This document shows, piece by piece, positions 6,935 through 23,599 of a DNA stretch of 47,768 nt. The stretch comes from Verrucomicrobiota bacterium (GTDB taxonomy: Bacteria; Verrucomicrobiota; Verrucomicrobiia; Limisphaerales; UBA11358), in NCBI GenBank assembly GCA_049516755.1, contig JBEKSU010000002.1:1-47768 (forward strand), given 5' to 3'. A program made the position numbers and the translations under genes. Numbering within the stretch: position 1 is the stretch's first letter; each line of letters starts with the position of its first letter. Below the pieces are notes generated by a model. The model worked only from the letters and a program-made list of their open reading frames with translations. It was not told the origin of the DNA and did no database searches.

Positions 6935-6959
6935 TTTTGTTTAATTCAGTTTAAAGCTT

Positions 6960-7023
6960 CGTAGCAGCCGAGGTAACGAGGCTCATTCTTCAAAAATGGA
7001 GCCTCCTCACGTCGGCTGCTACG
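6960..7023. repeat. REP doublet (REPIN-like), GTAG-type
   Basis: GTAGCAGCCGAGGTAACGAGGCTC (6961-6984) and inverted copy at 6999-7022, 21/24 identical, 14-nt spacer. Confidence 0.8.
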
Positions 7024-7037
7024 GTTTAGCAAGAGGT

Positions 7038-7988
7038 TCATTTTGATTCGGTTAAAAACAATTCCGACTCGCGGGACAGGAGCCAGCGCGCCCGCCGTTG
7101 CATCACGGTGTTGCGCAGCCGGATGTCCGGATTGGCATCCGGATTGATGGCCAATGCCTGGTTCAGCAGCGATTCAAATTCCTTCGCGTCCTGTTTTTGA
7201 ATGTCCACCGCCTCCGCCAGGGCGACCAGCGGCGAGGCGTCGGTTCCTCCGGAGAGGGTCATGGCGCGCTCGAAATGTTTGCGGGCGCGCGCCGCCGGAT
7301 CGCCGGCCGCGCCCGACCGGCTCATCTCGTACGTGATCATGAAGGTGTGAATCGCACCGCGGTCCCAGCTCTCGTCCAGCTCCAGCGCCCGGTCTATCAG
7401 GGCTTCCATGGCCGGAATCTGTCCGACGAGTTCGGGGTTGTCCTTGGAAAGGGAGATGGCCGAACCCCACGAGGCTGCCGTCCAATAGAGCAGGGGCACA
7501 TCCGATTTGGTGGCGGTGCGGACGGCGGCCTTGGGATTGGCCAGCAACGCCGTTCCGAAGCCGGGGTGTTTCACCTCGAGACCGCGCAGGCCGTATCCTT
7601 GGGCGCGCAGGTAGAGGTGTCGGGCCCGCACGCGCATCGTCTCGGCCGCGGCGAAGTCCTTTGGCTCCACCTCATCGGCGTCCTCCTGTACAAAGGCATA
7701 GGAATACTGGGTGAAACCGCCGGCTGCGGAAGTCAGCAGGCCCAGATGCTGTGGATTTTCCGCGAGCATGCTCTCGGTGAGTTTCAAGCCGAACGGCGCC
7801 GCGGCCTTGATGAGGTCGGGATCATCATCGCTGGCATACGTGGTGCCGCTTTGGGCCACGGCATCGGACACCTGGTTCAGGGCATAGCGATGAATGGAGC
7901 AGCCGCTGCCGGCAAACCATGCCAGCAGCAGACCGACGGGAACCCGCTGTGAAAGCAGGTTTCTTCGCACTGGAATTCTCTCATCCAT
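7038..7988 (-). CDS. tatT: TRAP transporter T-component (TatT), predicted lipoprotein
   Basis: lipobox-like AGSG-C after a hydrophobic stretch (start ATG 7988 preferred over 8030); DDDPDLIKAAAPFGLK, FTQYSYAFV, TPR-like helices, QRRARWLL; first gene of T-P-QM operon. Confidence 0.85.
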   Translation of the reverse strand: MDERIPVRRNLLSQRVPVGLLLAWFAGSGCSIHRYALNQVSDAVAQSGTTYASDDDPDLIKAAAPFGLKLTESMLAENPQHLGLLTSAAGGFTQYSYAFVQEDADEVEPKDFAAAETMRVRARHLYLRAQGYGLRGLEVKHPGFGTALLANPKAAVRTATKSDVPLLYWTAASWGSAISLSKDNPELVGQIPAMEALIDRALELDESWDRGAIHTFMITYEMSRSGAAGDPAARARKHFERAMTLSGGTDASPLVALAEAVDIQKQDAKEFESLLNQALAINPDANPDIRLRNTVMQRRARWLLSRESELFLTESK

Positions 7989-8218
7989 CAAGTCTCGTCT
8001 TTCCCGTTTCTTAATCTTCCGGACGTTCAACCGTCTTTCAGAAACATGACATTATCGGCGAAGCACGGATTCAACCGCAAGCCGCATTGCAACGGAAATT
8101 TGGCGGAAGGAGCCGCAATTGCAACTGCTGTTCGAAGCCATCCGTGGTGACGGGATGGTAAAGGCTGTTTTCGATTAGCATAAGAATTCTTAAAAAACCG
8201 GTGTTTTTGCATGGATTC

Positions 8219-8234
8219 TGGCATCGCCGATGCT
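8219..8234 (+). promoter_or_regulatory. Candidate sigma-54 (-24/-12) promoter
   Basis: TGGCATCGCCGATGCT: GG and GC separated by exactly 10 nt, just upstream of the pilin-like gene. Confidence 0.45.
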
Positions 8235-8247
8235 CGTTTACAGCATT

Positions 8248-8640
8248 ATGCGGGCAAAAAGGACATATAAAGTCTCGGGTTCGGAGGCTTTCACATTGGT
8301 GGAAATCATGATTGTGGTGGCCATAATCGGCCTGTTGGCGGCGATGGCCATTGCCAGTCTTACACGTGCCCGCGCGACATCACAGGCCAATGCCTGCATC
8401 AACAACATGCATCAGATTGACGGTGCTGTCACTGAATGGGCTTTGGAAAAAGGGAGGAAAACGGGGGACCCGGCTCCCAGCCTGACGGATGACCTGACGC
8501 CCTACATCAGGCTAAACTCCAGCAGCAGCATTCCCAGTTGTCCGGCGGGCGGCTCCTACATCATGAGCGCCGTGGGAAACATCCCTCAGATCACTTGCAG
8601 CCTCGGCAGCTCGGTTGACCCGCCTCACGTCTTGCATTGA
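8248..8640 (+). CDS. Type IV pilin-like protein (prepilin N-terminal cleavage/methylation motif)
   Basis: basic leader then A|FTLVEIMIVVAIIGLLAAMA; CINNMHQI and CPAGGSY...C; alternative start 8230. Confidence 0.9.
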   Translation: MRAKRTYKVSGSEAFTLVEIMIVVAIIGLLAAMAIASLTRARATSQANACINNMHQIDGAVTEWALEKGRKTGDPAPSLTDDLTPYIRLNSSSSIPSCPAGGSYIMSAVGNIPQITCSLGSSVDPPHVLH

Positions 8641-8760: not shown

Positions 8761-9207
8761 TCAAGAGGTTCCGCCGCTGCGGATGATTCCGGCGATTTGC
8801 TTCGCGACTTCGCGCGCAGCCTGCTCCACCTCGGGCGTCAACGTCGTGCCGAAATTAAAATCGCGGCCGCGGATGCTGAACAGGATGGCGCGCGGCGCCC
8901 GGTCGTAGAGCGTTTTGCACAACGACAGCACGTCCGCCGGCGTCAGATAATGGGCGACGGCGTGGCTTTGGAAGTTGGGGACGACGACGGTGCGTTGGAT
9001 GGCTTCCGGCGCTTCGGGTATCGCGGCGTCCACAAAAATCACGGCGTCAAAACGGCTGATGGTTTCGGAAGCCTCGATTTCAAGCTGCTGGCTGGTTTCC
9101 AGTTCCACGCCGGGGAGGCCCAGCGCGGCCAGTTGTTCGAGCACGAACCAGCCGACGCCGTCGTCGCGGCGGCTCTGGTTGCCGTAGCCAAGAATGAGGG
9201 TGGTCAC
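8761..9207 (-). CDS. hoxW: [NiFe]-hydrogenase maturation endopeptidase
   Basis: LILGYGN..RRDDGVG, VIFVDA, H-x-L-T-P motif; GTG start; directly after the large subunit. Confidence 0.9.
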   Translation of the reverse strand: MTTLILGYGNQSRRDDGVGWFVLEQLAALGLPGVELETSQQLEIEASETISRFDAVIFVDAAIPEAPEAIQRTVVVPNFQSHAVAHYLTPADVLSLCKTLYDRAPRAILFSIRGRDFNFGTTLTPEVEQAAREVAKQIAGIIRSGGTS

Positions 9208-9211
9208 AAGA

Positions 9212-9290
9212 AACGGAGTGTTGGAGTGGTGTAGTACTGGAGTGTTGGGATTTTCAGTTCTCCATCACTTCATCTCTCCACTACTCCGTT
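9212..9290. repeat. Inverted pair of octamer tandem repeats
   Basis: ggagtgtt ggagtggt gtagtact ggagtgtt ... ctccatca cttcatct ctccacta ctccgtt fills the hoxH-hoxW gap. Confidence 0.75.
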
Positions 9291-10722
9291 AGATTTTGGT
9301 GTCGCGCTGCACGGTTTGCAATACTGTCCCGCCGGCGTCCACTACTTCGACGCGCATCGGCATCTGGCCGACGGCGTGGGTGGCGCAGCTCAGGCAGGGG
9401 TCGTAACAGCGGATGACCGCCTCGACGCGGTTGAGCATGCCTTCCTGCAATTTCTTCGCCTTGACGTATTTCTTCGCCAGGGCCTGCACGCCGCGGTTCA
9501 TCGCCAGGTTGTTGTGGCCGGTGGCGACGATCAAATTGGCCTTCTCGATGCGGCCATTTTCGTCCACCCAATAATGATGGATCAATGTGCCGCGCGGCGC
9601 TTCAACCACGCCCACGCCTTCCCGGCGGGCCGGCTGGTTCGGCACCAGCACGTCGGTGCTGAGGATGTCGGGGTCTTTCAACAACTGCTGCGAGCGTTCC
9701 AAGCCGTAGAGCACTTCAATCACCCGCGCCCAGTGGTAGTAGAACGAGCTGGTCCGCACCGGCCCTTTGGCGCGCCAGACTTTCAATTCGTCGTCGGCCT
9801 GCGGCGTCGCAATGTGGCTGCAGACGTTCAAGCGCGCGAGCGGTCCCACACGGTACATGCCGTTCGGATAACCGAGTTTGGAGATAAACGGGAACTTCAT
9901 GTACGACCACGGCTCGACCGCCTCGCTGATGTAGTCGAGGTATTTGTCCGGCGAAATCTGGTCATGGAACATTTTGCCGGCGGCATCGCAGAAACGGAGC
10001 TTGCCGTCGTACAATTCCAGCGCGCCGTCGGGCTGGACGAGACCCATGTAATTGGAATCGAAGTTGGCGAAGTCCTCGACCTCCGCGAGGTTGGCCTTGT
10101 GATAGCCCGTGAGCAGATCGAGCGCGAACTTCGTGTGAGCGTACGCCTCGGGCAGGCCCTTGAGGATTTCGTCGCGCTGGGCGGTGGTGAGCACCTTGTT
10201 CACGCCGCCGGGCACCGGAAAATCCGCGTGAATTTTGCGGCCGGCGACGAGTTTGATGAGTTCCTGGCCGAACTTGCGCAGCCGCACGCCCTTGATGGCG
10301 ATGTCGGGTTTTTGCTGGATGAGGCCGACGATGTTGCGGGCGGCGGGGTCGGAGTCGAACCCGAGCAGCAGGTCGGGCGCGCTGAGATGGAAAAAACTGA
10401 GCGCGTGGGACTGGATGATCTGTCCCATGTGCATCAGTTCGCGGAGCATTTTGGCCGGACGGGGAATTTCATGACCGACGATGGCGTCGCAGGCTTTGGA
10501 GCTGGCGAGCAGATGGCTGACAGGGCAGATGCCGCAGGTGCGCGGGGTGATTTGCGGCATCTCGGTGAAATGCCGGCCTTCGCAGAATTTTTCAAACCCG
10601 CGGAACTCCACGACGTGGAAACGCGCGTCGTCCACCTCGCCCCGGTTGTCGAGGTGGATGGTGATCTTGGCGTGGCCCTCGATGCGGGTGACGGGGCTGA
10701 TGGTGATGGTCTTGGTTGTCAT
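9289..10722 (-). CDS. hoxH: [NiFe]-hydrogenase large subunit, group 3d-like
   Basis: TRIEGH, RGFEKF, L1 [22 protein letters not shown]2 [10 protein letters not shown] followed by a cleavable tail (AVGQMP...). Confidence 0.93.
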
Positions 10723-10723
10723 G

Positions 10724-11335
10724 TCAGTCGTACCTCAAATTCTTCTCGGTCCACTGCGGCATGCGGCCGGCCAGCAATTCCGTCAGGGCGTACCAGATCA
10801 CGTCGGCATCCGGCGGGCAGCCGGGAATGGAAAGGTCCACCTTCACGACCTCCTGGAGCGGGCGGGCCTTGGCGGTCAGCACCGGCACAACGGGGTCGTT
10901 AGGGATGCAACTGATTTTGGTGCTCTCGGTCTGTTCGTAGGCGCGCAGCAGCACGTCGCGGAGCTGGAACTGGTTGCGCAGGGACGGAATATTGCCAGTA
11001 ACGGCGCAATCGCCGAGCGCGATCAGCACCTTGCAGCGCGAGCGGAGTTTTTTCAGCTCGTGTTCCTGCTCATTGTTGTTGACGCAACCTTCGACGATGC
11101 CGACGTCCACCTGCGGGATTTCCTTCGTATCCACGATGGGGCCGTAGAGAATGTCCACGAGCTTGACCAGTTCCACGAGGCGTTCGTCGAGGTCGAGGAA
11201 CGACATGTGGCAGCCGGAACAGCCGCTCAGCCACATGGTGGCGACGCGCACCTTCGCGGGTGCGGGCGCCGCCGTGGCGGTGGCAGGTTTGCGGACGGGT
11301 TTCTTCGTCACTTTTTTGCCGGTAATCTTCTTCAT
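10724..11335 (-). CDS. hoxY: [NiFe]-hydrogenase small subunit (single-cluster type)
   Basis: [23 protein letters not shown]; 203 aa, no Tat signal, no distal-cluster domain. Confidence 0.92.
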
Positions 11336-13152
11336 GCGAACACATTCTCCAAAATCACCGCATCTTCGCGGGCTTCACCGTGCAACGGCAGCACTGGAGT
11401 CAATTTCAACTTGCGGCCTTCCAGATTCGTGATGGTGCCGGATTTCTCGCACCAGATGGCGGTGGGCAACACGACTTTTGCCGCCTCGGTCAAATGTGAC
11501 TGGTAGGCCGCCTGCACCACCACGCAGTCAATCTTCGGCAGCGCGGCTGAGACACCGGTTTCTTCCATGATTTTCAGGCCGCCATCCGGGGCATCGCTGG
11601 CCACGATGTGCAGGAATTTCAATGGCTTGGCATCCAGCCACGGGCCGACTTCCTCGACGGCTTCGATGCCGGCGCCGGCGAGCGCGAGGCTGTTGCTGCC
11701 GGCGGGGAGGCCGATGAGCAACGGCTCCTGTCCACCCCGGTTGGTTTCCAAAATCTTGATCAATTGTTCCATCACCGTGACCCCGATGGGCGTCATGGCA
11801 TCAGGCCCATATACCACGGCGGGGCGCTTGATACCGGCCAGCGTTGTCGCCACGCGGCTCCAGAGTGTGTTTTCCAGACTGACGATGTTGGCGCGAACAT
11901 CTGCGAACTGGTCGAGGTTGGTCTTGCGGGTGTGGAAGATGAGCAGCTTGGCGCCGCGTTTGCGCACGGTGGTGCGGATGCGGGCGGCCAGCACGCCATT
12001 GTCGCGGGCGGGTTGCGCGCCGATGATGATGATGGCATCGGCATCCTGCAATTTCGTCAGCGCGTCGGCCGTGTACTGGGGCTGGGCGCACAGGGCGGCC
12101 TCGTTGGTGGCCACATGCATGCCCACGCGGTCCACCTTGCCGGCGAGGCCGGTGACGGTTTTAGCCGTCTCATTGGTCAGGCGCGGCAGCACGAGCAGCG
12201 CTTTCTCTGATTTTTTTGCGGCCTTGGCGGCCTTGCGAATCGTATCAAGCGCCTCGGCCCAGGTGGCTTTTTGCAACGCGCCGTTTTTGCGCACGAGCGG
12301 CGTGAGGATGCGTTCCCGCGGCTCGGCCCAGGTCTGGTAACGGCCTTTGACACAAAGATGGCCGCGATTGACGGGCGAATTCGGGTCACCCCAGACGGTC
12401 ACGATGCGGTTTTCCTTGGTGAACACCTTGAGGCCGCAGCCGACGGGGCATTCGGTGCAGGTGGTGAGCACCTGCCGGCAACTGGCCAGCGGGCCACGGA
12501 AGGCCGCCGCCTTGTCGAACAGCGCGCCGGTCGGGCAATTCACCACGCAGGCGCCACATTGGGTGCAGGTGAGCGACTCGCCATACGTCTGGTTCATGTC
12601 CACGATCACCCGGTTGCGGATGCCGCGGTAGGCCACGTCGAGCGTATGCACGCCTTCGAGTTCGTCGCAGGTGCGGACGCAGCGCGTGCACAGGATGCAG
12701 CGGTTGTGGTCCATGCCGAAATATTTCGCCGACACGTCCACCGGCAGCGCGGGATACAGGTATGGGTAACGGATGCCATCGATGCCGTGCATATAACCCT
12801 GGTGCTGCAGGCCGCAATCGCCCTTGTTGTACTGGCACATCGGGCAGATGTGGTTGCGTTCGCTGAACAGGAGTTCCAGGGTGGCGCGACGCAGGTTGTG
12901 GAGCCGTTCGCTTTTGGTGATGATTTTGGTGCCCGCGACCGCCGGGGTGGTGCAGGCCGGCACGATTTTCGGGCTGCCCTCGATTTCAACGATGCAGAGG
13001 CGGCAGCCGCCCCAGGAAGTGAGTCCCTGAAGATAGCACAGCGTCGGAATGGGGATGTTGTTGGCGCGGGCGATCTCTAGGATGGTCTGGCCTTCAGCCG
13101 CCTCGCAGAGCCGGCCATCAATGTGGAGAGAGATTTTTTTGGGTGCAGTCAT
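11332..13152 (-). CDS. HoxU-like Fe-S subunit extended with a NuoG/molybdopterin-oxidoreductase-like fold (HydA-like, 606 aa)
   Basis: PTLC..GGCRLC..PAC [2Fe-2S]; HICPMC..C; [11 protein letters not shown] and [12 protein letters not shown]; extra [13 protein letters not shown]; [18 protein letters not shown]; start ATG 13152 avoids overlap with the upstream gene. Confidence 0.88.
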
Positions 13153-13166
13153 GGCTTTGCCGTAAA

Positions 13167-16100
13167 TCAGTGGGTCTTTGCCTCCGGAGTGGCTTTGATG
13201 TCGCAACGCAGGCAGCGGAAGCACTCGGCCTTGGCCTGCCACTCGGTGAAGGTGGGCGACACGTCAACCCAGGTGCCGCGCCGTTCCTCGACGGGCAACA
13301 GCCGCGCCGGGTTCCGTCCGCCACCCTGGCCAGCGGGCGGGATCGTCTGGCTGTAATCAAAATGCGGCCATAATTTCTCGAATCGGTCTTCGCCCGTCAA
13401 CGCCCGATCAATCGCCTTCGCCGCCTTCTTGCCCCAGCCCATGGCGATGGAAACGTTGGCGGCGCCGGTGACATAATCGCCGGCGGCATAAACCTTCGGG
13501 TGGCTCGTCTGGTGCGTCCACGGATCCACCTTGAGCGTATTCCGGGACGTGGTTTCGAGTCCCAACGCCTGGGTCACCGTGCTGTCGGGCTTTTCGCCGA
13601 TGGCCTTGATGACGGTGTCGCACGGAATCACGTAAGTTTCCGTGGTGACCACCGGCGAGCGGCGGCCGCGGGGATCGAACTTGCCGGGCACGGTCTTGGC
13701 GACCTCCAGGCCGGTGATGCGCCGGCTCTTGTCGGTGATGACGCGGAAAGGGGCGGCCATGGTGATGAGCCGGGCGCCTTCCTCGATCGCCTGCCTGGTT
13801 TCATCGACAATCGCCGGCATTTCTTCGCGGGAACGGCGATAAACGATGGTGACCTCCGCGCCCATGCGCAGGGAGGTGCGGGCCGCATCAATGGCGGAGT
13901 TGCCGCCGCCGATGATGACAACCTTTTTGCCCAGCGGCAGCTTTTGGCCATAAGCCGAGGCGTTGAGAAATTCCAGCGATGGATAAAGGCTCCTGGCCTC
14001 CTCGCCGGGAATGCCGAGCAGGGTTTCCTGCCAGGTGCCGAGGGCCAGCAGCACGACGTCGTGTTTCTTTTCAAGATCGCCGAGCTTCAGCGTTTTGCCG
14101 AGCGCGGCATTGAACTTGAACTGGACGCCGGCGCCGCGGATGAAGGCGACTTCCTTGTCCACCACATGTTTGGGCAGGCGGTATTCCGGCAGCGCATAAC
14201 GGAGCATGCCGCCCGCGTCGGGAGCGCTGTCATAAACGGTGACCTTGTGGCCGAGCAGGGCAAGATAGAACGCGGCACTGAGGCCGGCCGGGCCGGCGCC
14301 GACCACGGCAATCTTTTTGCCGGTGGCAGCCCGCTTGCGCTTGAGGATCCGCTTCAACACTTTTTTGGCGAGGTCGCCGTTGTACGCCGTGTCGGCGATA
14401 TACCGGTGGGTTTCGCGCATGTTCACCGAGGCGTCCGTGCCGGCGCGGCGACAGCGGGTCTCGCACGAATGCTGGCAGACGCGGCCGGTGGAGGCGGGCA
14501 GGGGATTGTCCATCACCACCTGTTCAAACGCGTCCTCGAGCCGGTCCTCCTTCAACAACTGGAGGAAGGCGGGGATGTTCATGTTGAGCGGGCAGGTGTT
14601 TTCGCACGGGGAAAGCTGCAGGGCGGTGCATACGCCGGCCGCGCAGCGGTGTTCAAGGATGTGCTGCTCGTACTCGCGGCGGAAATGCTTGAGCGTGGTC
14701 AGCACCGGGTTCGGCGCGGTCTGGCCCAGGCCGCACAGGCTGGCGTCGCGCACGACGTGGCAGAGCGCCTCGAGCCGGTCCAGGTCCTCCAGCACCCCTT
14801 CGCCGCGGCAGATTTTTTCCAGCAGATTGAGCATCTGCTTGGTGCCGACGCGGCACGGCGGGCATTTGCCGCAGGATTCATCGCAGCAAAATTCGAGGAA
14901 GAACCGGGCGACGTCCACCATGCAGGAATCCTCGTCCATGACGACGAGGCCGCCGGAGCCCATGATGGAGCCGAGTTTCTGGAGCGCTTCGTATTCCAAT
15001 GGCGTGTCGAGCAGGCTGGCCGGGATGACGCCGCCGGACGGCCCGCCCGACTGCACGGCCTTGAATAATTTGCCGTTCGGCGGGCCGCCGCCGATATCGA
15101 AAATGAGTTCGCGCAAGGGGGTGCCGAAGGGCACCTCGGCCAGGCCGGTGTTCTGGATCTTGCCGGCGAGGGCGAAGACCTTGGTGCCCTTGGCCTTCTC
15201 GGTGCCGATGGTGGCATACCACGCGCCGCCGCGGCGGATGATGATGGGCACTGTGGACCAGGTTTCCACGTTGTTGATGTTGGTGGGCCTGCCCCACAAA
15301 CCGGCTTGCGCCGGGTACGGCGGACGCGGCATGGGCTGGCCGCGGCGGCCTTCGATGGACCGCATGAGCGCGGTTTCCTCGCCGCACACAAACGCGCCGG
15401 CGCCGATGCGGAGTTCGATGTCGAAATCGAATCCGCTTTCAAAAATATTTTTGCCGAGCACGCCAAGCTTGTAGCCCTGGTCAATGGCGATCTGCAGGCG
15501 TTTGATGGCCAGCGGATATTCGGCGCGGATGTAGATGAATCCGCGGTTGGCGCCCATGGCATAGGCGCCGATGATCATGCCTTCAACAACGCTGTGCGGG
15601 TCGGCCTCGATCACCGAACGGTTCATGAACGCCCCCGGATCGCCTTCGTCGGCGTTGCAGATGATGTACTTGGGCTTGCTGGCCACCCTGGCCATGAGCT
15701 CCCATTTCATCCCGGTGGGATAACCCGCGCCGCCGCGGCCGCGCAGGCCGCTGGTTTTGATCTCCTCAATGACGCGCGCGGGGGTCCATTCGGTGAGCAC
15801 CTTGCCGAGCGCGGCATAGCCGTCGCGTGCGACGTATTCCTCGATATTTTCAGGGTTGATGATGCCGCAGTTGTTGCGGACGACGCGCGACTGCAGATTG
15901 AAGAATGCGAAATCCTGCTGGGTGGCGACGATGCTGTTGGTGATGGGGTCACGCGGCAGGAGTTTTTCGTAGGGCCGGCCCTTGACGAAGTGTTCCTGGA
16001 CGAGCTTGGGCACATCGGCGGCGACGACACTCCGGTAGAACGTGCCGTCGGGATAAACGAGGGCAACGGGGCCGAGGTCACAGCGTCCCATGCAGCCGGT

Positions 16101-16235
16101 TTCGACGACATGGACTTCGTTTTCCAGGCCGGCTTTTTTGAGCTCCTTCACCAGGGCGTCGCGGGCGGCGAAACTGCCCGAGCTGGTGCAGCCGGTCCCG
16201 GTGCAAATCAACACATGCGCGCGAAAATTGGCCAT
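13167..16235 (-). CDS. HoxF/HydB (NuoF-like FMN/NADH subunit) fused to a GltD/NfnB-like FAD/NAD(P)H oxidoreductase
   Basis: CTGTGC..CMGRC thioredoxin-like [2Fe-2S]; GLRGRGGAG, NADEGDPGAFM, CGEET, ESCGKCPPC..LCGLG; then PCENTCP, GRVCQHSCETRC, GAGPAG, GGGNSA, VYRR, AAGD, C-terminal CLRC. Confidence 0.92.
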   Translation of the reverse strand: MANFRAHVLICTGTGCTSSGSFAARDALVKELKKAGLENEVHVVETGCMGRCDLGPVALVYPDGTFYRSVVAADVPKLVQEHFVKGRPYEKLLPRDPITNSIVATQQDFAFFNLQSRVVRNNCGIINPENIEEYVARDGYAALGKVLTEWTPARVIEEIKTSGLRGRGGAGYPTGMKWELMARVASKPKYIICNADEGDPGAFMNRSVIEADPHSVVEGMIIGAYAMGANRGFIYIRAEYPLAIKRLQIAIDQGYKLGVLGKNIFESGFDFDIELRIGAGAFVCGEETALMRSIEGRRGQPMPRPPYPAQAGLWGRPTNINNVETWSTVPIIIRRGGAWYATIGTEKAKGTKVFALAGKIQNTGLAEVPFGTPLRELIFDIGGGPPNGKLFKAVQSGGPSGGVIPASLLDTPLEYEALQKLGSIMGSGGLVVMDEDSCMVDVARFFLEFCCDESCGKCPPCRVGTKQMLNLLEKICRGEGVLEDLDRLEALCHVVRDASLCGLGQTAPNPVLTTLKHFRREYEQHILEHRCAAGVCTALQLSPCENTCPLNMNIPAFLQLLKEDRLEDAFEQVVMDNPLPASTGRVCQHSCETRCRRAGTDASVNMRETHRYIADTAYNGDLAKKVLKRILKRKRAATGKKIAVVGAGPAGLSAAFYLALLGHKVTVYDSAPDAGGMLRYALPEYRLPKHVVDKEVAFIRGAGVQFKFNAALGKTLKLGDLEKKHDVVLLALGTWQETLLGIPGEEARSLYPSLEFLNASAYGQKLPLGKKVVIIGGGNSAIDAARTSLRMGAEVTIVYRRSREEMPAIVDETRQAIEEGARLITMAAPFRVITDKSRRITGLEVAKTVPGKFDPRGRRSPVVTTETYVIPCDTVIKAIGEKPDSTVTQALGLETTSRNTLKVDPWTHQTSHPKVYAAGDYVTGAANVSIAMGWGKKAAKAIDRALTGEDRFEKLWPHFDYSQTIPPAGQGGGRNPARLLPVEERRGTWVDVSPTFTEWQAKAECFRCLRCDIKATPEAKTH

Positions 16236-16241
16236 GGCGGA

Positions 16242-16613
16242 TTACTCCTTATCCTTGGTCTGGCCCACGGCGAGTTCCTGGACCTTTTTGCCCTTTTGCA
16301 GGTGCTGGGTGACGATCTTGCGTGCGCCTTCGAGATTGACCTTGCCATAGACGGTCTTCTCGCCACCGGCTTCCTCGACGCGCACCATCGGTTCGGCGTC
16401 CACCATGCCGATTTCGCCGGTGACACACACTTCCACGCTGCCGATGTTTTGCTTCTCGATTTCGTCGAGCATCGTGGTCATCACTTCGCGCGCGCCGGCG
16501 GCGACGCCGCTGGTGCTCATGCCGACCACCACGCGATATTTCTTGCCGCCTTCGCGCAGGGCGATTTGTTTTTGCGCCTTTTCCTTGAGTTTTTTCAGTT
16601 GTTCCAGGTTCAT
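16242..16613 (-). CDS. HydD-like thioredoxin-fold ferredoxin homolog lacking cluster cysteines
   Basis: VVVGMSTSGVAAGAREV, TGEIGMVDAEP, YGKV, IVTQHL..GK match the family frame; ATG 16613 overlaps upstream stop (ATGA). Confidence 0.8.
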   Translation of the reverse strand: MNLEQLKKLKEKAQKQIALREGGKKYRVVVGMSTSGVAAGAREVMTTMLDEIEKQNIGSVEVCVTGEIGMVDAEPMVRVEEAGGEKTVYGKVNLEGARKIVTQHLQKGKKVQELAVGQTKDKE

Positions 16614-17092
16614 AAATGGACCTTTCCTTTCGTGGCCAGCTCGCGGGAGTCGAAGAAAAACTTCTCTCCGTCGGAGCGGTAGTTTAACTGCACATCGATT
16701 TTTTTGTCCGCCGCGCACAATGCCAGAATCGTCGCGTTCAAATCGCCCAGCGGCGGCCGGTCAATATGGCTGAGCCGCATCGAGGCGGTCACGGACGTGC
16801 CCCGGCCGGGGACGGACCGCACCTGAAAACAGCCGTCACACATCTCGGAGGCCTGCCGCAGGAAGGCCAGGCCGAGGCCGATGGATTTGCGCCGTTTGTT
16901 TTTGCTGCTCCAGCGTTGCGTCAGCACGCGCTTCAGCCGGGCCGCGTCCATCCCGCAACCGTCATCCTGCACGCGCAGCTCAAGCCGGTCGCGCCGCCGG
17001 CTCTCCCGGATGCTGATCCGCACTTTTGTGGCATTGGCGGAGATCGAATTCATGGCAATGTCCAGGATGTGCTGTGACAGCTCTTCAAACAT
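16610..17092 (-). CDS. Stand-alone histidine-kinase-like ATPase (HATPase_c)
   Basis: ELSQHILDIAMNS (N box), DDGCGM (G1), GLGL (G2), GRGT; no sensor or HisKA domain. Confidence 0.88.
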   Translation of the reverse strand: MFEELSQHILDIAMNSISANATKVRISIRESRRRDRLELRVQDDGCGMDAARLKRVLTQRWSSKNKRRKSIGLGLAFLRQASEMCDGCFQVRSVPGRGTSVTASMRLSHIDRPPLGDLNATILALCAADKKIDVQLNYRSDGEKFFFDSRELATKGKVHL

Positions 17093-17618
17093 ATTTTTTC
17101 AGGTCGGTCTTGAAGAGCTGCGGGATCTTGTCAACCGTCAGCTTGCCATAGACGTCGTCGCCCACCGACATGGCCGGCGCCAGCGCGCAGGCGCCGATGC
17201 ACCGGGCGGTGGAGAGGCTGAACCGGCCGTCCCTGGTGGTTTCGCCTTCCTTCACGCCGAGCTGTTTTTCCACGGCGGCCAGGATCTGGTCCGAACCCCG
17301 CACGTGGCAGCCGGTGCCGCGGCAGACCATGATCTGGTGCTTGCCGCGCGGGACCATGGTGAAGAAATTGTAAAAGGTGACCACGCCATAGACGTGCGAC
17401 ACGGGGAGCTTCAATGCGCCGGCGATGTAGCGGAGCACGTCGGCGCTGAGATAACCGAACATCTGCTGCGCCGCGTGCAACACCTGGATCAGCGCCGTCG
17501 ATTCGTGGTTGTAGCTTTCAATCGTCCGGTCCAGGTCCGCGAAGCGCGGGTCACCGCTCGGGTGGGTGGTTTCCATGGCCGCGATGCGCGCGGTTTCGCT
17601 GACGGTTTTCTGGTTCAT
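17085..17618 (-). CDS. hoxE: NuoE-like [2Fe-2S] subunit (HoxE/HydC)
   Basis: LIQVLH..Q..GYL, VYGVVTFY, CRGTGC, CIGAC; start ATG 17618 overlaps the DRTGG stop (ATGA). Confidence 0.9.
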   Translation of the reverse strand: MNQKTVSETARIAAMETTHPSGDPRFADLDRTIESYNHESTALIQVLHAAQQMFGYLSADVLRYIAGALKLPVSHVYGVVTFYNFFTMVPRGKHQIMVCRGTGCHVRGSDQILAAVEKQLGVKEGETTRDGRFSLSTARCIGACALAPAMSVGDDVYGKLTVDKIPQLFKTDLKKYV

Positions 17619-17944
17619 CGTAATCCTGCCTTCCAAAGTTTGCCGGCCGCTTCGTAGGTGGTTTGTTTCGTGGACAACAACACAATGCCTTCCGCATCCG
17701 CCTCGGCCAAAACCGCCCGGTCGGGTTTCCGGCCGCAGGTGAAGAGCACCGTGCCGATGTCCTTGGCCAGGGCGCAGGAGATGACATTGCGATGGGTCTG
17801 GATGGTGACCCAGAGCATGCCAGGGCTGGCATGCGCCAGTACGTCGCTGAGCAGGTCGCTGATGTAGCAACCCGTCAGGTCGGCCTCCACTTTTTTGGTC
17901 AGCGGCCTGGCCTTCACAGTGGCCATGACGGACGATAATTTCAT
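17615..17944 (-). CDS. DRTGG-domain protein
   Basis: GCYISDLLSDVL, LWVTIQTHRNV, YEAAGKL; 109 aa; context next to the kinase. Confidence 0.85.
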   Translation of the reverse strand: MKLSSVMATVKARPLTKKVEADLTGCYISDLLSDVLAHASPGMLWVTIQTHRNVISCALAKDIGTVLFTCGRKPDRAVLAEADAEGIVLLSTKQTTYEAAGKLWKAGLR

Positions 17945-19080
17945 GAGTTTGCCTGTTTTCCCGGGCGCTTCTTCACGGGCGGCGGGGCCGCCTTGTGCAA
18001 CAGGACCTCGGAATACAGCCGGGTGCCGGCGCCCATTTCGGAATGAATTTCAAATTTATCGGAACATTTTTTGATGTTGGGCAGGCCCATGCCGGCGCCA
18101 AAGCCCAGTTCGCGCGCCAGCGGACCCGCGGTGGACCAGCCTTCCTGCATGGCCAGATCGATGTTCTCAATCCCCGGTCCGTGATCCGTGGCTTCGATGA
18201 CCACCTTGCCCGGGGTGACGGCCACCGAGAGGTCGCCGCCGATGGAATGGATGATGATGTTTGTCTCGGCCTCGTAGGCGACGATTGCCGCGCGGCGCTG
18301 GATGTCCGGGTCCACCCCGCGCATCCGCAAAATCTGGCGCATGCGCTGGGACACCTTGCCCGCGCTGTCGTAATCGCCCGCCTTCACCTCGGCCCGCAAC
18401 ACCATCGGTTCAGCCAGTTTCTGGCCCCGCGCCCGGCCCGGAGTCTGCGCGGCTTCGCGGGTGGCGACCTCCTCGGCGCGCTTCTCCAGGTGTTGCATCA
18501 GGCAGGAGGTGATGTCGCCGCGGGTGATGACGCCCACGAGTTCGCCGGCACTGTTCAACACGGGAAAACGGCCGAAGCCGTGCCGGTCGAACTCTGCCAC
18601 CGCGCGCACGAGGGAAAAATGGTCGCGCAGCGTGACGATGTTCCGCGTCATCCATCGCTCCGCCGGGTCGTTGACGTGGCCCTGATCAAGGGCGTTGATG
18701 ATGTCTTCAATGCTGACCAGACCCACCGGGGCGCCGTTTTGGAGGATGGGCACGCCCGAGATGCGGTGGGACTTCATCAAATTCTGTATGGTGCGCAGTG
18801 AATCCTCCGGCGCGCCGGTCACGGGAGGCCGGGTCATCGCGTCCCGCACGCGCAATTCGTAAGTCAGGACCTGGGCAACGGAAACTTTGAGCGGTTTGCC
18901 CGCGGTCATGCCGGTTTCGGTCGGGGACCCTTCAGCCATGGTTGCGGCGATCGTGCCGTCTTCCAGCCTGACCGCCGCGGCATTATGCGCCACCGCAGCG
19001 CTGGCGGTCAATTCCGGACCCGACTCCGGAAGAATGGCTGCCGGCCGTACCCTCTTTTTCTTTTGTTTGGTGGCGCTCAT
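17941..19080 (-). CDS. CBS-pair domain fused to RsbT/RsbW-like anti-sigma-factor Ser/Thr kinase
   Basis: VRDAMT..ISGVPI..GLVS and WMT..GRFPV..GVITRGD (two CBS); YEAETNIIIH, DHGPGI, GWSTA, GFGAGMGLPN; exact start uncertain. Confidence 0.88.
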   Translation of the reverse strand: MSATKQKKKRVRPAAILPESGPELTASAAVAHNAAAVRLEDGTIAATMAEGSPTETGMTAGKPLKVSVAQVLTYELRVRDAMTRPPVTGAPEDSLRTIQNLMKSHRISGVPILQNGAPVGLVSIEDIINALDQGHVNDPAERWMTRNIVTLRDHFSLVRAVAEFDRHGFGRFPVLNSAGELVGVITRGDITSCLMQHLEKRAEEVATREAAQTPGRARGQKLAEPMVLRAEVKAGDYDSAGKVSQRMRQILRMRGVDPDIQRRAAIVAYEAETNIIIHSIGGDLSVAVTPGKVVIEATDHGPGIENIDLAMQEGWSTAGPLARELGFGAGMGLPNIKKCSDKFEIHSEMGAGTRLYSEVLLHKAAPPPVKKRPGKQANS

Positions 19081-20635: not shown

Positions 20636-23554
20636 TTATTTTGCTTTGGCACCAGAATTGAGCGCCTGCAAGTGGTTGCTGGCATTACGCCAGAAGGGGG
20701 TTCCGGTTGGGGTGTTGGCCAGACAGAGACGCAAATAATGCATGGCCTGATTGGTGTCGTGGCGATGCTCGGCAATTATGGCCAGTCCGTAACTGGCGCG
20801 GTCGAGTTCCAAGCCTGATTTTTCGAGTTCGTGAAAGTCCGCCTCTGCCGCCGCATAATCATGGCTGGCGAGCCGGGCGCTGGCGCGGTTAAACCGTGCC
20901 AGCGGCAGGTTGGTGAGAGCCAGGACGTGATCGAGGACCGGAATGGCGTCGGCGGGATTGCCAGATGCAAACAGGATGGCAGCCTTGTCGTTCAGGTCCG
21001 TTATTTCGTCCGGCGATTTGGACAGACGGGTGCTCAAGATCTGCAAAGCGTTCGTGAAATCCCCAAAGGCGAGATAAGCTTTCAAAACATTATGTGCTAT
21101 CTGCGCGTCGTCGGGATACCGCAACCAGACCGACTGGAGTGCGTTACGGGCGTTGGCGGCGTTCGTTTGCGCCAGCCAGAAGTTTGCCTCCAGCAGCGCC
21201 AGATCGAAGTCGACTGCCCGGTTGGTAGATAGATTTTTAGTCTCGTCACGCAAATGGTTGAGGATGGGACGGGCGCGGTCGGTCAACTGGAATTGTGTAT
21301 AGAGCTCGGCCAGGGCAAATTCCGGCGCGGCCACGCCGGGTGCGAGTATCCGGGTGCGTTCAAATTGCTGCACCGCCTGCACCCACTGGCCGGCTTTTTG
21401 ATAAGTGCAGCCAAGCAGATAACAATAAATCGGATCGTCAATCGGGCCACACTTGTTCATGACCAGGCTCAATCGCTGGAGATTCCCCAACTGGCTGGCC
21501 ACCTCGTTGATACCGGCCAGACCCGGCCTTAAGCCGGACTGGAGATTGGCGTTGCAGGCCAGGCTGATCCGCGCCGAGACGTTGTTGGTGTTCAGTTGCA
21601 GCGACTGTTCCAGACGGGTTCGCCCCTCATTCAAACGCCCTTGCTGTTGCAAAGCCACGCCCCAGGCTTCCAGCGAAAGCGAATACCATTCGGCCAGCAG
21701 GCGGTCCTGAAAAAGTGGCGGCGGGTCAATGCCGAAGGATGGGATTTCTTTCTGCCAGATGCTTGGTTGCCGGACCGAAGCGGCAGCGAATGGGGATAAA
21801 TCCTTTTGCCAGGCCTGGGTCCAGAAAGATTCATTCGTATCGGTTGCCGAATCAGATAATAACGGATTAGCCAGGGAATCTGGGCTTCGTAATTTCATTT
21901 CGAAAATGGCACCCGCGGGCTCCAGATAAAAACGTTCAAAATAATGGCCATGGCTTGGATGCAGGTAGAAAAAGCGGTTGGTGCGACTCATCTGTTCCAG
22001 CAACCGCACCGTTTCCAGCGGCGTAAGTTCGTGCCGGTTTTCATCGGTCAGCCAGCCGGCGGGGTGATGGCGTTCCAGCCAGGCACGATATTCCACCGTG
22101 GGCAGGGCGTGCGTATCCACGGCCAGCCAGGCCAACCGGTTGCGGTGGTGAGCCAGTGCGGCCTGAAACGCCTCCAACTTTTGCGGTTGGTCGCTCAACA
22201 TCACACCGCCGCCCGCAGGCAATGACCCGGCCGCCAGTTCGCCGAAGCTTTGCAACGGATGGTGATTCAAATGCAGGATGGCGGGGGCGTTTCTCACAGC
22301 CAGGCCCGCGATGATCAGGACGAGCGATCCGGCGGCGAATTGGACAGCCAGTTGCAACCTCCATTTCTCGGCAGGCAAATGAGTGCCCCGGTGACTGCCC
22401 CGGTGATCCATCCTCTGTAAAATCAACAGGAGGATGCCGGCCAGAAAGCCGGCGCCCAGCGCGGTCAAATAGTCAAATGTCAGCATCGGCAGCGAATCGC
22501 CGAATCGTTGTTGTACCATCTGGCGCGGCCCGATGACCGGGTCAAATGCCAGCCACAAACAAGCCAGCAGCAGCAGCACGCGCAGACCCCGGCAAGTCAG
22601 GAGCTCGATCGGGTTCATTCGCGATTCGTCGTAGCTGTTCTCGTCGCGGAACCGCATCAGACAGGCCAGCGTGGGCACCAAAATATAACACGCCAATCCC
22701 AGCGTCAGCGTCCGGTGCGAAAGCCAGAATTGTTGGTAAAGCGTCCTGACCACGCTCTCGGTCTGCTTCAAACTGACGATGCAGGCGTGGCCCAGGGTCC
22801 AAGGTGAGTGCGGAGCCAGGCCATTGACCAGCGGCAGCAGTGCATATAATGAAAATCCAGCCAACCCCAGCCCGGTCAACCGCAGCAAAAATTCCACCCG
22901 GAACAAACGGAGCCATTGCAGCCAGCTTGCTCCGTCCCTCCTCCTCCTTTGCATGCCACTCTGGAAGAAGAAGTAAAATCCATGCAGCCAGATCACGCCG
23001 CCGATGAATAACGGCAGCGCCAACAGCATCAACCAGTTTTCGGCCATGCCCAGCCCCCAGACAAAGACCGCCGCATCCAGCAGCCAGCGGGATTCCCGGC
23101 GGACGCGATATTCGAGCAGCAACCACAGGGAAGCCGCCAGGACCAGCAAGTCCAGCATTTCGCCGGTGGCGGCGGTTGCCTCCTGCCAGAAGCTGAATTC
23201 CAGCCCGCATACCACGCACGCCAGCAAAACCGGCAGTGCGCGGGCCAGACGGTTTTCTTTTTCCCAGTGACGATCCCACAGCATCAACTGGACGGTGCGC
23301 GCCAGCAAACCCACCGTCAACGCTCCGGTGATGGTGGAAAAGAAATTCAGGCCCAAGGGAACCCAGGCGGCGGGCAACAGCCGCAATGGCAGGGTAAGCA
23401 GCCAGAACAGCGGACGCCCCACCATCGGCACCCAGTCCCAACCCGTCACTTTGGCCGCCAGCGCCAGGCTGTTCATCGTCACTCCGTGGCTCAACGTGAT
23501 GGCGTAAAGCACGAAGGCTGTCAGCGCGGCCAGCAGCGGCAGACGGCGGGTCAT
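20636..23554 (-). CDS. Polytopic membrane protein, DUF2723/GT-C-like N-terminus, with C-terminal TPR repeats
   Basis: LYAITL..GRPLF..LNFFS..FSFWQEA pattern, many TM segments, TPR-like helices (YLLGCTY, ARFNRA, ASYGLA); start 23554 or 23563. Confidence 0.65.
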   Translation of the reverse strand: MTRRLPLLAALTAFVLYAITLSHGVTMNSLALAAKVTGWDWVPMVGRPLFWLLTLPLRLLPAAWVPLGLNFFSTITGALTVGLLARTVQLMLWDRHWEKENRLARALPVLLACVVCGLEFSFWQEATAATGEMLDLLVLAASLWLLLEYRVRRESRWLLDAAVFVWGLGMAENWLMLLALPLFIGGVIWLHGFYFFFQSGMQRRRRDGASWLQWLRLFRVEFLLRLTGLGLAGFSLYALLPLVNGLAPHSPWTLGHACIVSLKQTESVVRTLYQQFWLSHRTLTLGLACYILVPTLACLMRFRDENSYDESRMNPIELLTCRGLRVLLLLACLWLAFDPVIGPRQMVQQRFGDSLPMLTFDYLTALGAGFLAGILLLILQRMDHRGSHRGTHLPAEKWRLQLAVQFAAGSLVLIIAGLAVRNAPAILHLNHHPLQSFGELAAGSLPAGGGVMLSDQPQKLEAFQAALAHHRNRLAWLAVDTHALPTVEYRAWLERHHPAGWLTDENRHELTPLETVRLLEQMSRTNRFFYLHPSHGHYFERFYLEPAGAIFEMKLRSPDSLANPLLSDSATDTNESFWTQAWQKDLSPFAAASVRQPSIWQKEIPSFGIDPPPLFQDRLLAEWYSLSLEAWGVALQQQGRLNEGRTRLEQSLQLNTNNVSARISLACNANLQSGLRPGLAGINEVASQLGNLQRLSLVMNKCGPIDDPIYCYLLGCTYQKAGQWVQAVQQFERTRILAPGVAAPEFALAELYTQFQLTDRARPILNHLRDETKNLSTNRAVDFDLALLEANFWLAQTNAANARNALQSVWLRYPDDAQIAHNVLKAYLAFGDFTNALQILSTRLSKSPDEITDLNDKAAILFASGNPADAIPVLDHVLALTNLPLARFNRASARLASHDYAAAEADFHELEKSGLELDRASYGLAIIAEHRHDTNQAMHYLRLCLANTPTGTPFWRNASNHLQALNSGAKAK

Positions 23555-23599
23555 ATTAAACACGAAACCATTGGATTATATTTTACCAGCTGATGACAG

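Follow-up and report, generated by a model that had tools for sequence, protein, structure and literature searches.

A predicted [NiFe] hydrogenase of Verrucomicrobiota with a GltD-like module at the position of the HydB ferredoxin-like domain

Bfu-type enzymes (HydABC, HydABCSL, Stn/NfnABC and others) are abundant in anaerobes. To our knowledge, ferredoxin, reached by way of the B3/B4 domain, is the acceptor of the low-potential electron in all characterised members. Here we describe a hydrogenase operon of a Verrucomicrobiota bacterium (Limisphaerales, UBA11358; assembly GCA_049516755.1) in which hydB continues, in one reading frame, into a GltD/NfnB-like flavoprotein module. The operon lies in the first 47,768 nucleotides (nt) of contig JBEKSU010000002.1, the stretch that was analysed as a whole and that we call the window; its fused product is called HydB::GltD below.

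The FMN (flavin mononucleotide)-based bifurcation mechanism of Bfu enzymes is described as still unresolved (PMC12018979). In cryogenic electron microscopy (cryo-EM) work on a Bfu transhydrogenase, ferredoxin sits between the C-terminal domain of BfuC and the ferredoxin-like domain of BfuB (PMC12018979), and the low-potential path is given as C1 to B3/B4 to ferredoxin (PMC12018979; the same proposal is made in PMC10482914). The BfuBC core has six clusters that are called "absolutely conserved", B3 and B4 being two of them, and the B2 [2Fe-2S] cluster is ligated by C438, C476, H525, C531, and C536, with the histidine lacking in non-bifurcating homologs and serving as a mark of bifurcating BfuB (PMC9304861).

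Among described systems, the NiFe-HydABCSL hydrogenase of Acetomicrobium mobile (7t2r/7t30; PMC8880783) has the same HydC, HydB, HydA, HydS, and HydL set as the window operon, and the A. mobile operon also holds hisK, hydD, and hydP, which are outside the purified enzyme (PMC9304861, PMC8880783). Its HydA is likewise long, NuoG-like, and without an H-cluster, and its HydB has identical B2 ligands. The A. mobile enzyme, however, bifurcates between NAD+ (nicotinamide adenine dinucleotide) and ferredoxin through the HydB B3/B4 domain, whereas the window HydB has a predicted FAD (flavin adenine dinucleotide)/NADP(H) module of 480 residues. In addition, the window operon starts with CBS-kinase and DRTGG genes, unlike that of A. 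mobile, and its host is a peat Verrucomicrobiota bacterium rather than a Synergistetes thermophile.

The Stn/Nfn-Bfu enzymes (StnABC 8oh5; NfnABC 9n5u; 9bov) also join a GltD-like FAD/NADPH module to a HydBC-type FMN/NAD(H) core, and their modules are the ones most similar to the window module, with an RCLxC motif after the flavin domains in both. In these enzymes, which lack hydrogenase subunits, the module is inserted in BfuA, NADPH donates electrons at mid potential, and ferredoxin is reduced by a BfuB that has retained B3/B4; in the window operon the module is on BfuB, at the position of the low-potential exit, with none in BfuA, and H2 is on the BfuA side, with HydS and HydL present. The NfnB/NfnL subunit of NfnAB/NfnSL is homologous to the fused module, but the NfnA/NfnS (PyrK-like) partner is not encoded in the window operon and the window module is circularly permuted. 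HoxEFUYH (group 3d; 5xf9) likewise places a cytoplasmic group-3 [NiFe] module on a NuoEFG-like diaphorase, but has a short HoxU (~240 residues), a plain HoxF, and no GltD module, and HoxH is a poorer match to the window HydL than is the A. mobile protein. For the Synechocystis HoxEFUYH, bifurcation between NAD(H) and ferredoxin, not supported by NADPH, is reported (bioRxiv 10.64898/2026.06.25.734504, a 2026 preprint). Finally, the same HydC + HydB::GltD pair occurs in an [FeFe] HydABC locus with GltD-extended HydB (Vallitalea guaymasensis L81, peg.3894-3896; PMC6163223). [FeFe] loci with a GltD-tailed HydB have the same invariant ligands and often the same DRTGG, HATPase, and HydD companions, with an H-cluster HydA in place of HydA-HydS-HydL.

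HydB::GltD and its hydrogenase scaffold

Searches against all Protein Data Bank (PDB) structures, which underlie every comparison with solved structures below, reveal that the first half of HydB::GltD is a HydB core. In particular, residues 1-539 have A. mobile HydB (7t2r_B) as best match (E value 4.6e-236) and align without gaps to its residues 1-539. Pfam identifies the NuoF-type FMN/NAD(H) site and B1 (Complex1_51K, 7e-45; NADH_4Fe-4S, 9.6e-34) and, at residues 5-81, the 2Fe-2S_thioredx domain of B5. The B1 cysteines C455, C458, C461, and C501 are invariant in 31 fused database proteins, and the B5 cysteines C11, C16, C48, and C52 also stand in 7t2r_B and in all 19 NiFe-type fused rows of the alignment. 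All five B2 ligands are present in HydB::GltD at identical numbers; of the 136 fused rows, all have C438, H525, C531, and C536, and 116 have C476.

The A. mobile HydB has 597 residues, the last ~60 of which form the ferredoxin-like domain with B3 and B4. The alignment of HydB::GltD to 7t2r_B ends at residue 539 of these 597 and is followed by the GltD/NfnB-like module; in the Pfam scan, no Fer4 dicluster domain is found in the fused protein, only Fer4_20 and Pyr_redox_2. Given where the alignment ends and where ferredoxin is known to bind, the fusion takes away the known ferredoxin site, whose place in the sequence is occupied by a flavin/nucleotide module. The "built-in NADP(H) module" of an earlier first-pass annotation of this DNA is therefore present, but it replaces the HydB ferredoxin-like domain rather than being a mere addition to HydB.

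A congener carries the other version. Genome G022 (genomes, contigs, and loci are designated by G, C, and L numbers, G000 being the window's genome) has the same ten-gene operon with an unfused HydB of 624 residues (locus L082; G022:C2 8398-10272) that ends in two CxxCxxCxxxC(P) motifs and whose core is 73% identical to that of fused HydB. Across the two operons, the first nine proteins are 64-73% identical and the protease 39%. The G022 operon and those of its GltD-tailed congeners are a natural domain-swap pair within one genus.

The second half of HydB::GltD matches Fer4_20 (2.7e-18) and Pyr_redox_2 (4.3e-36) in Pfam. Its best PDB matches are the GltD inserts of 9bov_A (residues 102-567, 2.6e-102), NfnA 9n5u_A, and StnC 8oh5_C (residues 102-568), the last solved with FAD and NADPH bound (PMC10482914); next come NfnL 5jca_L (1.5e-85), NfnB 4ylf_B (5.4e-83), and glutamate synthase small chains. 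The module has two [4Fe-4S] sites, an FAD-type Rossmann motif, and an NAD(P)H-type Rossmann motif with a basic motif. Specifically, seven cysteines (C544, C548, C587, C591, C595, C1008, and C1011), the FAD GxGxxG at residues 646-651 (GAGPAG), the NAD(P)H-type Rossmann motif (GGGN at 776-779), and Y799-R800-R801, after the second Rossmann strand, are invariant both in 37 fused modules from many phyla and in the 31 database proteins. Seven cysteines for two [4Fe-4S] clusters would fit NfnB, where one cluster has a non-cysteine ligand, and we take YRR to be the NADP(H) signature of NfnB/GltD proteins.

The alignments to 9bov_A and StnC reach the extreme C-terminus, RCLxC motif included, although a Pfam scan of the C-terminal 71 residues alone gives no match. 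In a stand-alone GltD/NfnB-like protein (locus L123) the corresponding EATRCLQC segment is N-terminal, directly before CxxxCP. Because RCLxC is C-terminal in the fusion and N-terminal in this protein, the fused module is circularly permuted relative to stand-alone GltD, with two of its cluster ligands supplied by the C-terminal tail. The fused module is thus complete and belongs to the StnC kind.

The other redox subunits identify the scaffold. HydL has A. mobile HydL (7t2r_D) as best PDB match (4.3e-176, 589 bits), ahead of Hox 5xf9_D (437 bits) and MvhA 5odc_F (397 bits), and carries the metal-binding motifs of such subunits, one N-terminal and one C-terminal (DPCLSCATH). HydA has A. mobile HydA (7t2r_A) as best match over residues 7-406 (1.4e-100), while the match to HoxU (5xf9_B) is restricted to residues 18-226; its Pfam domains are Fer2_4, NADH-G_4Fe-4S_3, Fer4 (Fer4_Nqo3), Molybdop_Fe4S4, and Molybdopterin, and its cysteine motifs, for one [2Fe-2S] and four [4Fe-4S] clusters, can be read as clusters A1-A5. 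HydC, a separate BfuC with the C1 [2Fe-2S] cluster, has HydC subunits of bifurcating hydrogenases as best matches (8a6t_C, 1.2e-44; 7t2r_C, 6.6e-39, ranking fourth), and its C99, C104, C140, and C144 are invariant in an alignment of 38 HydC sequences. The HydD-like protein has no Pfam or NCBIfam match; against PDB (phmmer), it matches NfnB 9n5u_B over residues 7-93 (4.5e-09), StnB 8oh5_B (1.5e-06), and 7t2r_B (0.001), and is related to the thioredoxin-like domain at the N-terminus of HydB/NfnB, with one cysteine only.

A BfuA without H-cluster together with group-3 [NiFe] HydS and HydL, and the accessory genes, point to the described NiFe-HydABCSL (NiFe-Bfu) type as the scaffold. No twin-arginine motif was seen at the HydS N-terminus, and the enzyme is predicted to be a cytoplasmic [NiFe] hydrogenase of the HydABCSL type, which agrees with the soluble [NiFe] enzyme of the first-pass annotation. 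Its label of a hybrid between a Hox core and a HydABC electron module did not hold: three of the four redox subunits tested have A. mobile HydABCSL as closest solved relative, and HydC ranks 7t2r_C fourth. The locus likewise falls outside HoxEFUYH in that its HydA is long and has a Molybdopterin domain and its HydL scores lower against Hox; the HoxE and HoxU NCBIfam models score under their cut-offs, with HoxE still the best model for HydC. In the whole genome (90% completeness), no match to Fe_hyd_lg_C ([FeFe] hydrogenase) is present. Two more matches to the N-terminal part of NiFe large subunits lie elsewhere in it (G000:C311:586-822 and G000:C58:14649-14855) and could be other hydrogenases or complex-I-like proteins.

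Occurrence and descent of GltD-tailed HydB

To define the occurrence of the fusion, we used two locus sets, one from the phylum and genus and one from all phyla; the sets overlap (for example, L080 = L101 and L063 = L172). A search of 25 genomes of the window's genus finds the fused gene in three, G000, G011, and G017, and the unfused operon in G022. Among 401 genomes sampled evenly across the phylum, 67 (including G000) have a match that runs from the NuoF part into the GltD part. The phylum/genus set comprises 57 of these 67 and three congeners, 60 loci in all, of which 59 are fused and one (G022) is not. The all-phyla set comprises the 80 best loci from a scan of one genome per prokaryotic species; the fusion is uninterrupted in 79. 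Finally, a collection of 5.8 billion proteins holds at least 120 clusters of such proteins; those listed are mostly of 1000-1060 residues, 52-94% identical, and annotated as "NADH-quinone oxidoreductase subunit F" or "FAD-dependent oxidoreductase". The phylum, all-phyla, and protein-cluster matches reject the possibility that the fusion is peculiar to the window locus, and place the window operon in a large, uncharacterised class of GltD-tailed HydB enzymes.

Since both sets were picked by similarity to the fused query, counts of hydrogenase types in them are not prevalence figures. Downstream of the fusion, the 59 loci of the phylum/genus set have an [FeFe] hydrogenase in 50, HydA-HydS-HydL in two (congeners), a HydA-like N-terminal match only in three, and nothing recognisable or a contig end in four. 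Pfam finds Fe_hyd_lg_C and Fe_hyd_SSU in nine of ten downstream genes tested; the tenth, in G138, encodes a short HoxU-like protein beside a Hox-type operon. For the 79 uninterrupted fusions of the all-phyla set, the downstream genes are NiFe in 17, FeFe in 47, HydA-like only in six, and none or a contig end in nine. The gapped locus, L115, is also followed by HydA-HydS-HydL but is outside the 17. With both overlapping sets pooled, 97 of 138 fused loci have an [FeFe] neighbour. The idea that the fusion is mainly NiFe-linked is rejected by these numbers, and a search for NuoF-GltD fusions beside [NiFe] genes, as proposed in the first-pass annotation, does find them, in Verrucomicrobiota and four Dehalococcoidia, while most fusions stand beside [FeFe] genes.

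The 17 NiFe loci consist of 13 contigs of Verrucomicrobiota type, in which all ten genes stand in the same order, and four Dehalococcoidia loci with HydC-HydB::GltD-HydA-HydS-HydL only, whose HydL is 53-58% identical. Overall, of 15 other Verrucomicrobiota loci from public assemblies, 14 have the ten-gene operon and one is on a contig that stops after hydB, which indicates that the arrangement is not due to chance or assembly. The nearest contigs are labelled Verrucomicrobiota (Verrucomicrobiae/Limisphaerales), with one close record labelled Candidatus Acidoferrum. Records with FeFe loci are labelled Planctomycetota, Omnitrophota, Myxococcota, Spirochaetia, Actinomycetota, Bacteroidota (Paludibacter), Acidobacteriota, and others.

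That the fusion is an assembly or frameshift artefact joining hydB to a separate gltD has a negligible probability. The assembly is fragmented and metagenome-like (328 contigs, 6.85% contamination), and the gene is broken in two relatives: in G017 (L081, G017:C10 ~10950-11480) it is in two frames, split near residue 850, and in L115 there is a gap between the HydB and GltD matches (~11611-11974). The window gene, however, is a single frame of 1022 codons, and the numbers of uninterrupted homologs (at least 67 of 401 phylum genomes, 79 of 80 loci across many phyla, at least 120 protein clusters) refute the artefact. In addition, contigs from four RNA libraries of four studies match parts of the operon at 92-100% likeness: one of 737 nt crosses the HydB/GltD junction (14227-14946), one of 1162 nt crosses hydB-hydD-hisK, and short pieces in hydL/hydS, hydD, and hydC are identical. 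These contigs support the continuity of the fused frame and are compatible with expression; gaps and differences in depth in their coverage carry no information. In two peat metagenome runs, over half of the sampled words of the operon are present; runs with small shares of the stretch (labelled peat, wetland, or soil) were not used as habitat evidence.

Trees of the HydB core and of the GltD module were calculated with FastTree (local support, midpoint-rooted) from a data set picked for fusions, leaving out rows with internal stops or with HydB matches below 450 residues. The HydB-core tree (151 rows) contains three clades. In the first (support 100), 18 Verrucomicrobiota NiFe rows, including the unfused G022, group together. 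The second (support 100) has eight rows, four being the Dehalococcoidia NiFe rows and the other four coming from contigs that end before the hydrogenase genes. The third (support 98) has 101 mostly FeFe rows. In the GltD-module tree (137 rows), 132 fused modules separate from five stand-alone GltD homologs with support 83. These trees fit an old HydC + HydB::GltD unit that may have been combined with either hydrogenase type. They also fit a swap between a GltD-type and a ferredoxin-type tail within the window's genus, in either direction, and one fusion event or several; with a support of only 80 for the placement of G022 inside the Verrucomicrobiota NiFe clade, the GltD module may have been either lost or gained.

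Several fused loci have additional hydrogenase genes. In five tandem loci of Verrucomicrobiota (L045 in G302, L046 in G397, L049 in G431, L054 in G261, and L056 in G360), HydC-HydB::GltD is directly followed by HydC'-HydB' (unfused, 44-46% identical) and [FeFe] HydA; two of the five have CBS-kinase, DRTGG, HATPase, and HydD genes in front. Tandem loci may encode a larger complex with both kinds of HydB. In G138 (L040, G138:C6), HydC, HydB::GltD, and a second short HoxU-like gene come immediately after a Hox-type operon (HydC-like, unfused HydB-like, short HoxU, HydS, HydL, protease). A Hox-like operon also adjoins the fused operon in L053, L075, and L098; in L075 and L098 the fused operon is [FeFe], and in L053 the contig ends just past the fused hydB. 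In four Omnitrophota loci (L123, L124, L136, and L141), a fused [FeFe] HydABC set is preceded by a stand-alone GltD/NfnB-like gene and followed by another set, HydC-HydD-HydB-HydA[FeFe], that is unfused; all these genes lie on one strand. HATPase-HydD-HydC-HydB::GltD is present in L051 (G341), L052 (G415), and L059 (G335); in L051 and L052, no HydA, HydS, or HydL is recognisable downstream on the same strand within 7-8 kb of flank, and L059 is cut by a contig end.

In agreement with the first-pass annotation, which knew of no characterised enzyme of this architecture, full-text searches of openly accessible papers yielded no characterised NuoF/HydB-GltD enzyme. The only mention of HydB-GltD found there is in the V. 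guaymasensis genome paper of 2018, which notes a GltD-extended HydB beside an [FeFe] hydrogenase by annotation, without experiments (PMC6163223). The main text of the Bfu survey has no mention of GltD or of fusions, and its supplementary clade tables may list fused BfuB; BfuB was chosen there by a domain architecture that includes a ferredoxin-type 4Fe-4S domain (PMC9304861). Hydrogenase classifications based on ordinary HydB domain sets may miss GltD-tailed HydB. A rule of the HydDB classifier, "GltD ... but not NuoF" (PMC5037454), suggests that its authors had come across proteins that have the two domains together. The NiFe form, and the ferredoxin site as the thing replaced, appear undescribed so far.

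Operon layout and neighbouring genes

The open reading frame listing and Pfam show ten co-directional genes on the minus strand, from 8761 to 19080 (Table 1), in the order CBS-kinase, DRTGG, HydC, HATPase, HydD-like, HydB::GltD, HydA, HydS, HydL, protease. The first-pass annotation had counted nine but given ten names; its gene content and order, NuoF-GltD fusion, long HoxU (here HydA), and kinase and DRTGG genes are all borne out. The five junctions it named are real: four are ATGA overlaps (17941-17944, 17615-17618, 16610-16613, and 11332-11335), the DRTGG gene sharing one with its neighbour on each side, and the fifth is an 8-nt overlap of the hydC and HATPase genes, ATGTTTGA, at 17085-17092. 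As a correction, the hydA ATG is at 13152 and not inside the hydB stop region.

Table 1. Genes of the hydrogenase operon and the two parts of the fused gene (positions in the window)
Feature	Position	Strand	Size and remarks
CBS-pair + GHKL ATPase (RsbW/SpoIIAB-like kinase)	17941..19080	-	379 amino acids (aa); first operon gene
DRTGG-domain protein	17615..17944	-	109 aa; Pfam DRTGG 3.2e-06, 27.4 bits (cut-off 25.2)
HydC / BfuC, NuoE-like	17085..17618	-	177 aa; Pfam 2Fe-2S_thioredx 1.5e-52
Stand-alone HATPase_c protein ("HisK" of HydABC(SL) operons)	16610..17092	-	160 aa; Pfam HATPase_c 4.6e-17
HydD-like small protein	16242..16613	-	123 aa; single Cys
HydB::GltD fusion, whole	13167..16235	-	1022 aa, single frame
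HydB/BfuB core, residues 1-540	14616..16235	-	B5 [2Fe-2S], FMN/NAD(H) site, B1 [4Fe-4S], B2 [2Fe-2S]
GltD/NfnB/StnC-like module, residues 541-1022	13167..14615	-	two [4Fe-4S], FAD, NAD(P)H site; replaces B3/B4 domain
HydA / BfuA, NuoG-like, without H-cluster	11332..13152	-	606 aa
HydS, [NiFe] small subunit	10724..11335	-	203 aa; Pfam Oxidored_q6 2.9e-31
HydL, [NiFe] large subunit	9289..10722	-	477 aa; Pfam NiFeSe_Hases 3.6e-31
HydP, hydrogenase maturation endopeptidase	8761..9207	-	148 aa; NCBIfam TIGR00072 6.7e-23, 81.3 bits (cut-off 47.45)

The Pfam domains of the whole fusion are, in order, 2Fe-2S_thioredx, Complex1_51K, SLBB, NADH_4Fe-4S, Fer4_20, and Pyr_redox_2. The product of the first gene matches Pfam CBS (2e-25), HATPase_c (2.4e-07), and HATPase_c_2 (4.7e-07), with a weak NCBIfam match to anti-sigma F factor, under the cut-off; its gene keeps its position in those Verrucomicrobiota loci whose contig extends far enough upstream and is also found in some [FeFe] loci. 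The DRTGG gene is found again 5' of fused-HydB operons of NiFe and FeFe types alike. In the stand-alone HATPase_c protein, the Pfam scan finds no dimerisation or histidine domain; for HydP, the Pfam match to HycI is weak (0.0047). Four of the genes (CBS-kinase, DRTGG, HATPase, and HydD) are conserved companions that may act in regulation or maturation. The operon as a whole is genuine, complete, and conserved, and hydC-hisK-hydD-hydB-hydA-hydS-hydL-hydP is the most fitting name for the locus, which has CBS-kinase and DRTGG genes in front.

Downstream lie TRAP-T transporter genes (4020-8030) and upstream a TPR/glycosyltransferase-like gene (20636-23563); both are unrelated to hydrogenase, which sets the limits of the operon at 8761 and 19080. 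The region is further flanked by genes for a PEP-CTERM/DUF4114 protein (23663-24259, minus strand) and a protein with a prepilin-type N-terminal methylation motif (8230-8640, plus strand), both ordinary for such bacteria.

Possible electron routes and their meaning

The reading that we favour, with a probability of roughly one half, is that the window operon encodes a ferredoxin-independent enzyme whose second branch would end in the fused flavin and reduce NADP+. In particular, H2 would be split at HydL, and electrons would pass from the HydS cluster through the five HydA clusters and B1 to the HydB FMN, where NAD+ would be reduced; the second branch, gated by the mobile HydC [2Fe-2S] cluster, would end on the GltD clusters and FAD and reduce NADP+. 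The overall reaction would be 2 H2 + NAD+ + NADP+ <-> NADH + NADPH + 2 H+. We infer this route, its stoichiometry, tight coupling, NADP specificity, and ferredoxin independence by analogy with A. mobile HydABCSL and Stn/NfnABC; the coupling of H2 to both NAD(H) and NADP(H) and the post-translational control that the first-pass annotation had put forward are conjectures as well.

The physiological potentials are given as -280 mV for NAD, -380 mV for NADP, and -414 mV for H2 at 1 bar (PMC9304861). The mean of the NAD and NADP couples (-330 mV) equals that of H+/H2 at ~150 Pa H2, and NADH alone equals it at ~3 Pa (29.6 mV per decade); NADPH co-oxidation would thus extend NADH-driven H2 release about fifty-fold in H2 pressure. 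At the low H2 expected in peat, the enzyme would probably run toward H2, and H2 above ~150 Pa would charge both nucleotide pools.

Several points weigh against the favoured reading. The NADP couple is only ~100 mV below NAD in cells, so that coupling would bring a modest gain, and the split between NAD and NADP is much smaller than that between NAD and ferredoxin. A preference for NADP over NAD is suggested by the YRR motif only, and C476 is not universal among fused proteins. The RNA-library contigs are no proof of transcription, as DNA carry-over is possible. A full-length gene for pyruvate:ferredoxin/flavodoxin oxidoreductase (PFOR; 37787-41407, plus strand; TIGR02176, 1845 bits, over the cut-off) lies on the same contig, 19 kb from the operon; the cell is thus expected to make reduced ferredoxin or flavodoxin, which the hydrogenase may still use. 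Finally, in NfnSL the homologous two clusters are described as the ferredoxin path (PMC10482914), and by analogy the GltD clusters may hold a ferredoxin site.

These last points lead to a four-substrate enzyme, in which ferredoxin or flavodoxin would dock on the GltD-type [4Fe-4S] clusters as on NfnL, and in which a bifurcating hydrogenase combined with an Nfn/Stn-like transhydrogenase would link H2, NAD(H), NADP(H), and ferredoxin. We consider this rather improbable, although it accords with the two [4Fe-4S] clusters of the GltD-like subunit of NfnAB/NfnSL leading to ferredoxin (PMC10482914), with the PFOR gene on the contig, and with the many genomes that hold both fused and unfused HydB, some in tandem, a pattern that fits distinct roles better than substitution. 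The domain that forms the ferredoxin site of Bfu enzymes is missing from HydB::GltD, and in the StnC/NfnA inserts, the closest solved relatives, the FAD is described as the entry of NADPH and the clusters as internal wires. A little less probable still is an uncoupled dual-cofactor hydrogenase, with FMN/NAD(H) and FAD/NADP(H) as independent exits of one Fe-S wire: under standard conditions the potential of H2 is below that of either nucleotide couple, so that at high H2 neither reduction needs driving, and non-bifurcating HydABC homologs exist (PMC9304861), but the Bfu hallmarks are kept, namely H525 and the B2 cysteines in all 136 fused rows (C476 excepted, as given above) and a separate HydC with C1, and it is the B2 histidine that non-bifurcating homologs are reported to miss (PMC9304861). 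That the module instead serves another acceptor (polysulfide or sulfur, which some NfnB/SudA/NsoC-like proteins are reported to reduce) or redox sensing is very improbable; GltD-like modules do occur in enzymes with varied acceptors (PMC8097209, PMC10482914), but here both Rossmann motifs and YRR are invariant and the operon encodes no extra catalytic subunit.

Extending ferredoxin independence from the window enzyme to its relatives gives a broader reading, which we offer tentatively and hold with less confidence than that for the window enzyme itself: a widespread class of ferredoxin-independent bifurcating or confurcating hydrogenases, NiFe and FeFe, would share one HydC + HydB::GltD core, in which the FMN/B1/C1 site would split electron pairs between NAD+ (high-potential) and NADP+ (low-potential). 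If so, there would be energy coupling between NADH and NADPH themselves, fermenters could vent NADH as H2, aided by NADPH, up to ~100 Pa H2, NADPH could be made from trace H2, and the congener pair would serve as a natural experiment in which a domain of the low-potential branch has been swapped.

If the exit is hard-wired to flavin and NADP(H), two soluble nucleotides would allow bifurcation (or non-bifurcation) to be monitored optically, with ferredoxin left out. Such a variant would also show if an acceptor of very low potential is required by the Bfu core. An enzyme yielding NADPH from H2 could further be useful in practice, for H2-driven cofactor regeneration. For the organisms, the finding would mean a new route from H2 to NADPH in peat and sediment bacteria (Verrucomicrobiota, Dehalococcoidia, Planctomycetota, Omnitrophota, and others).

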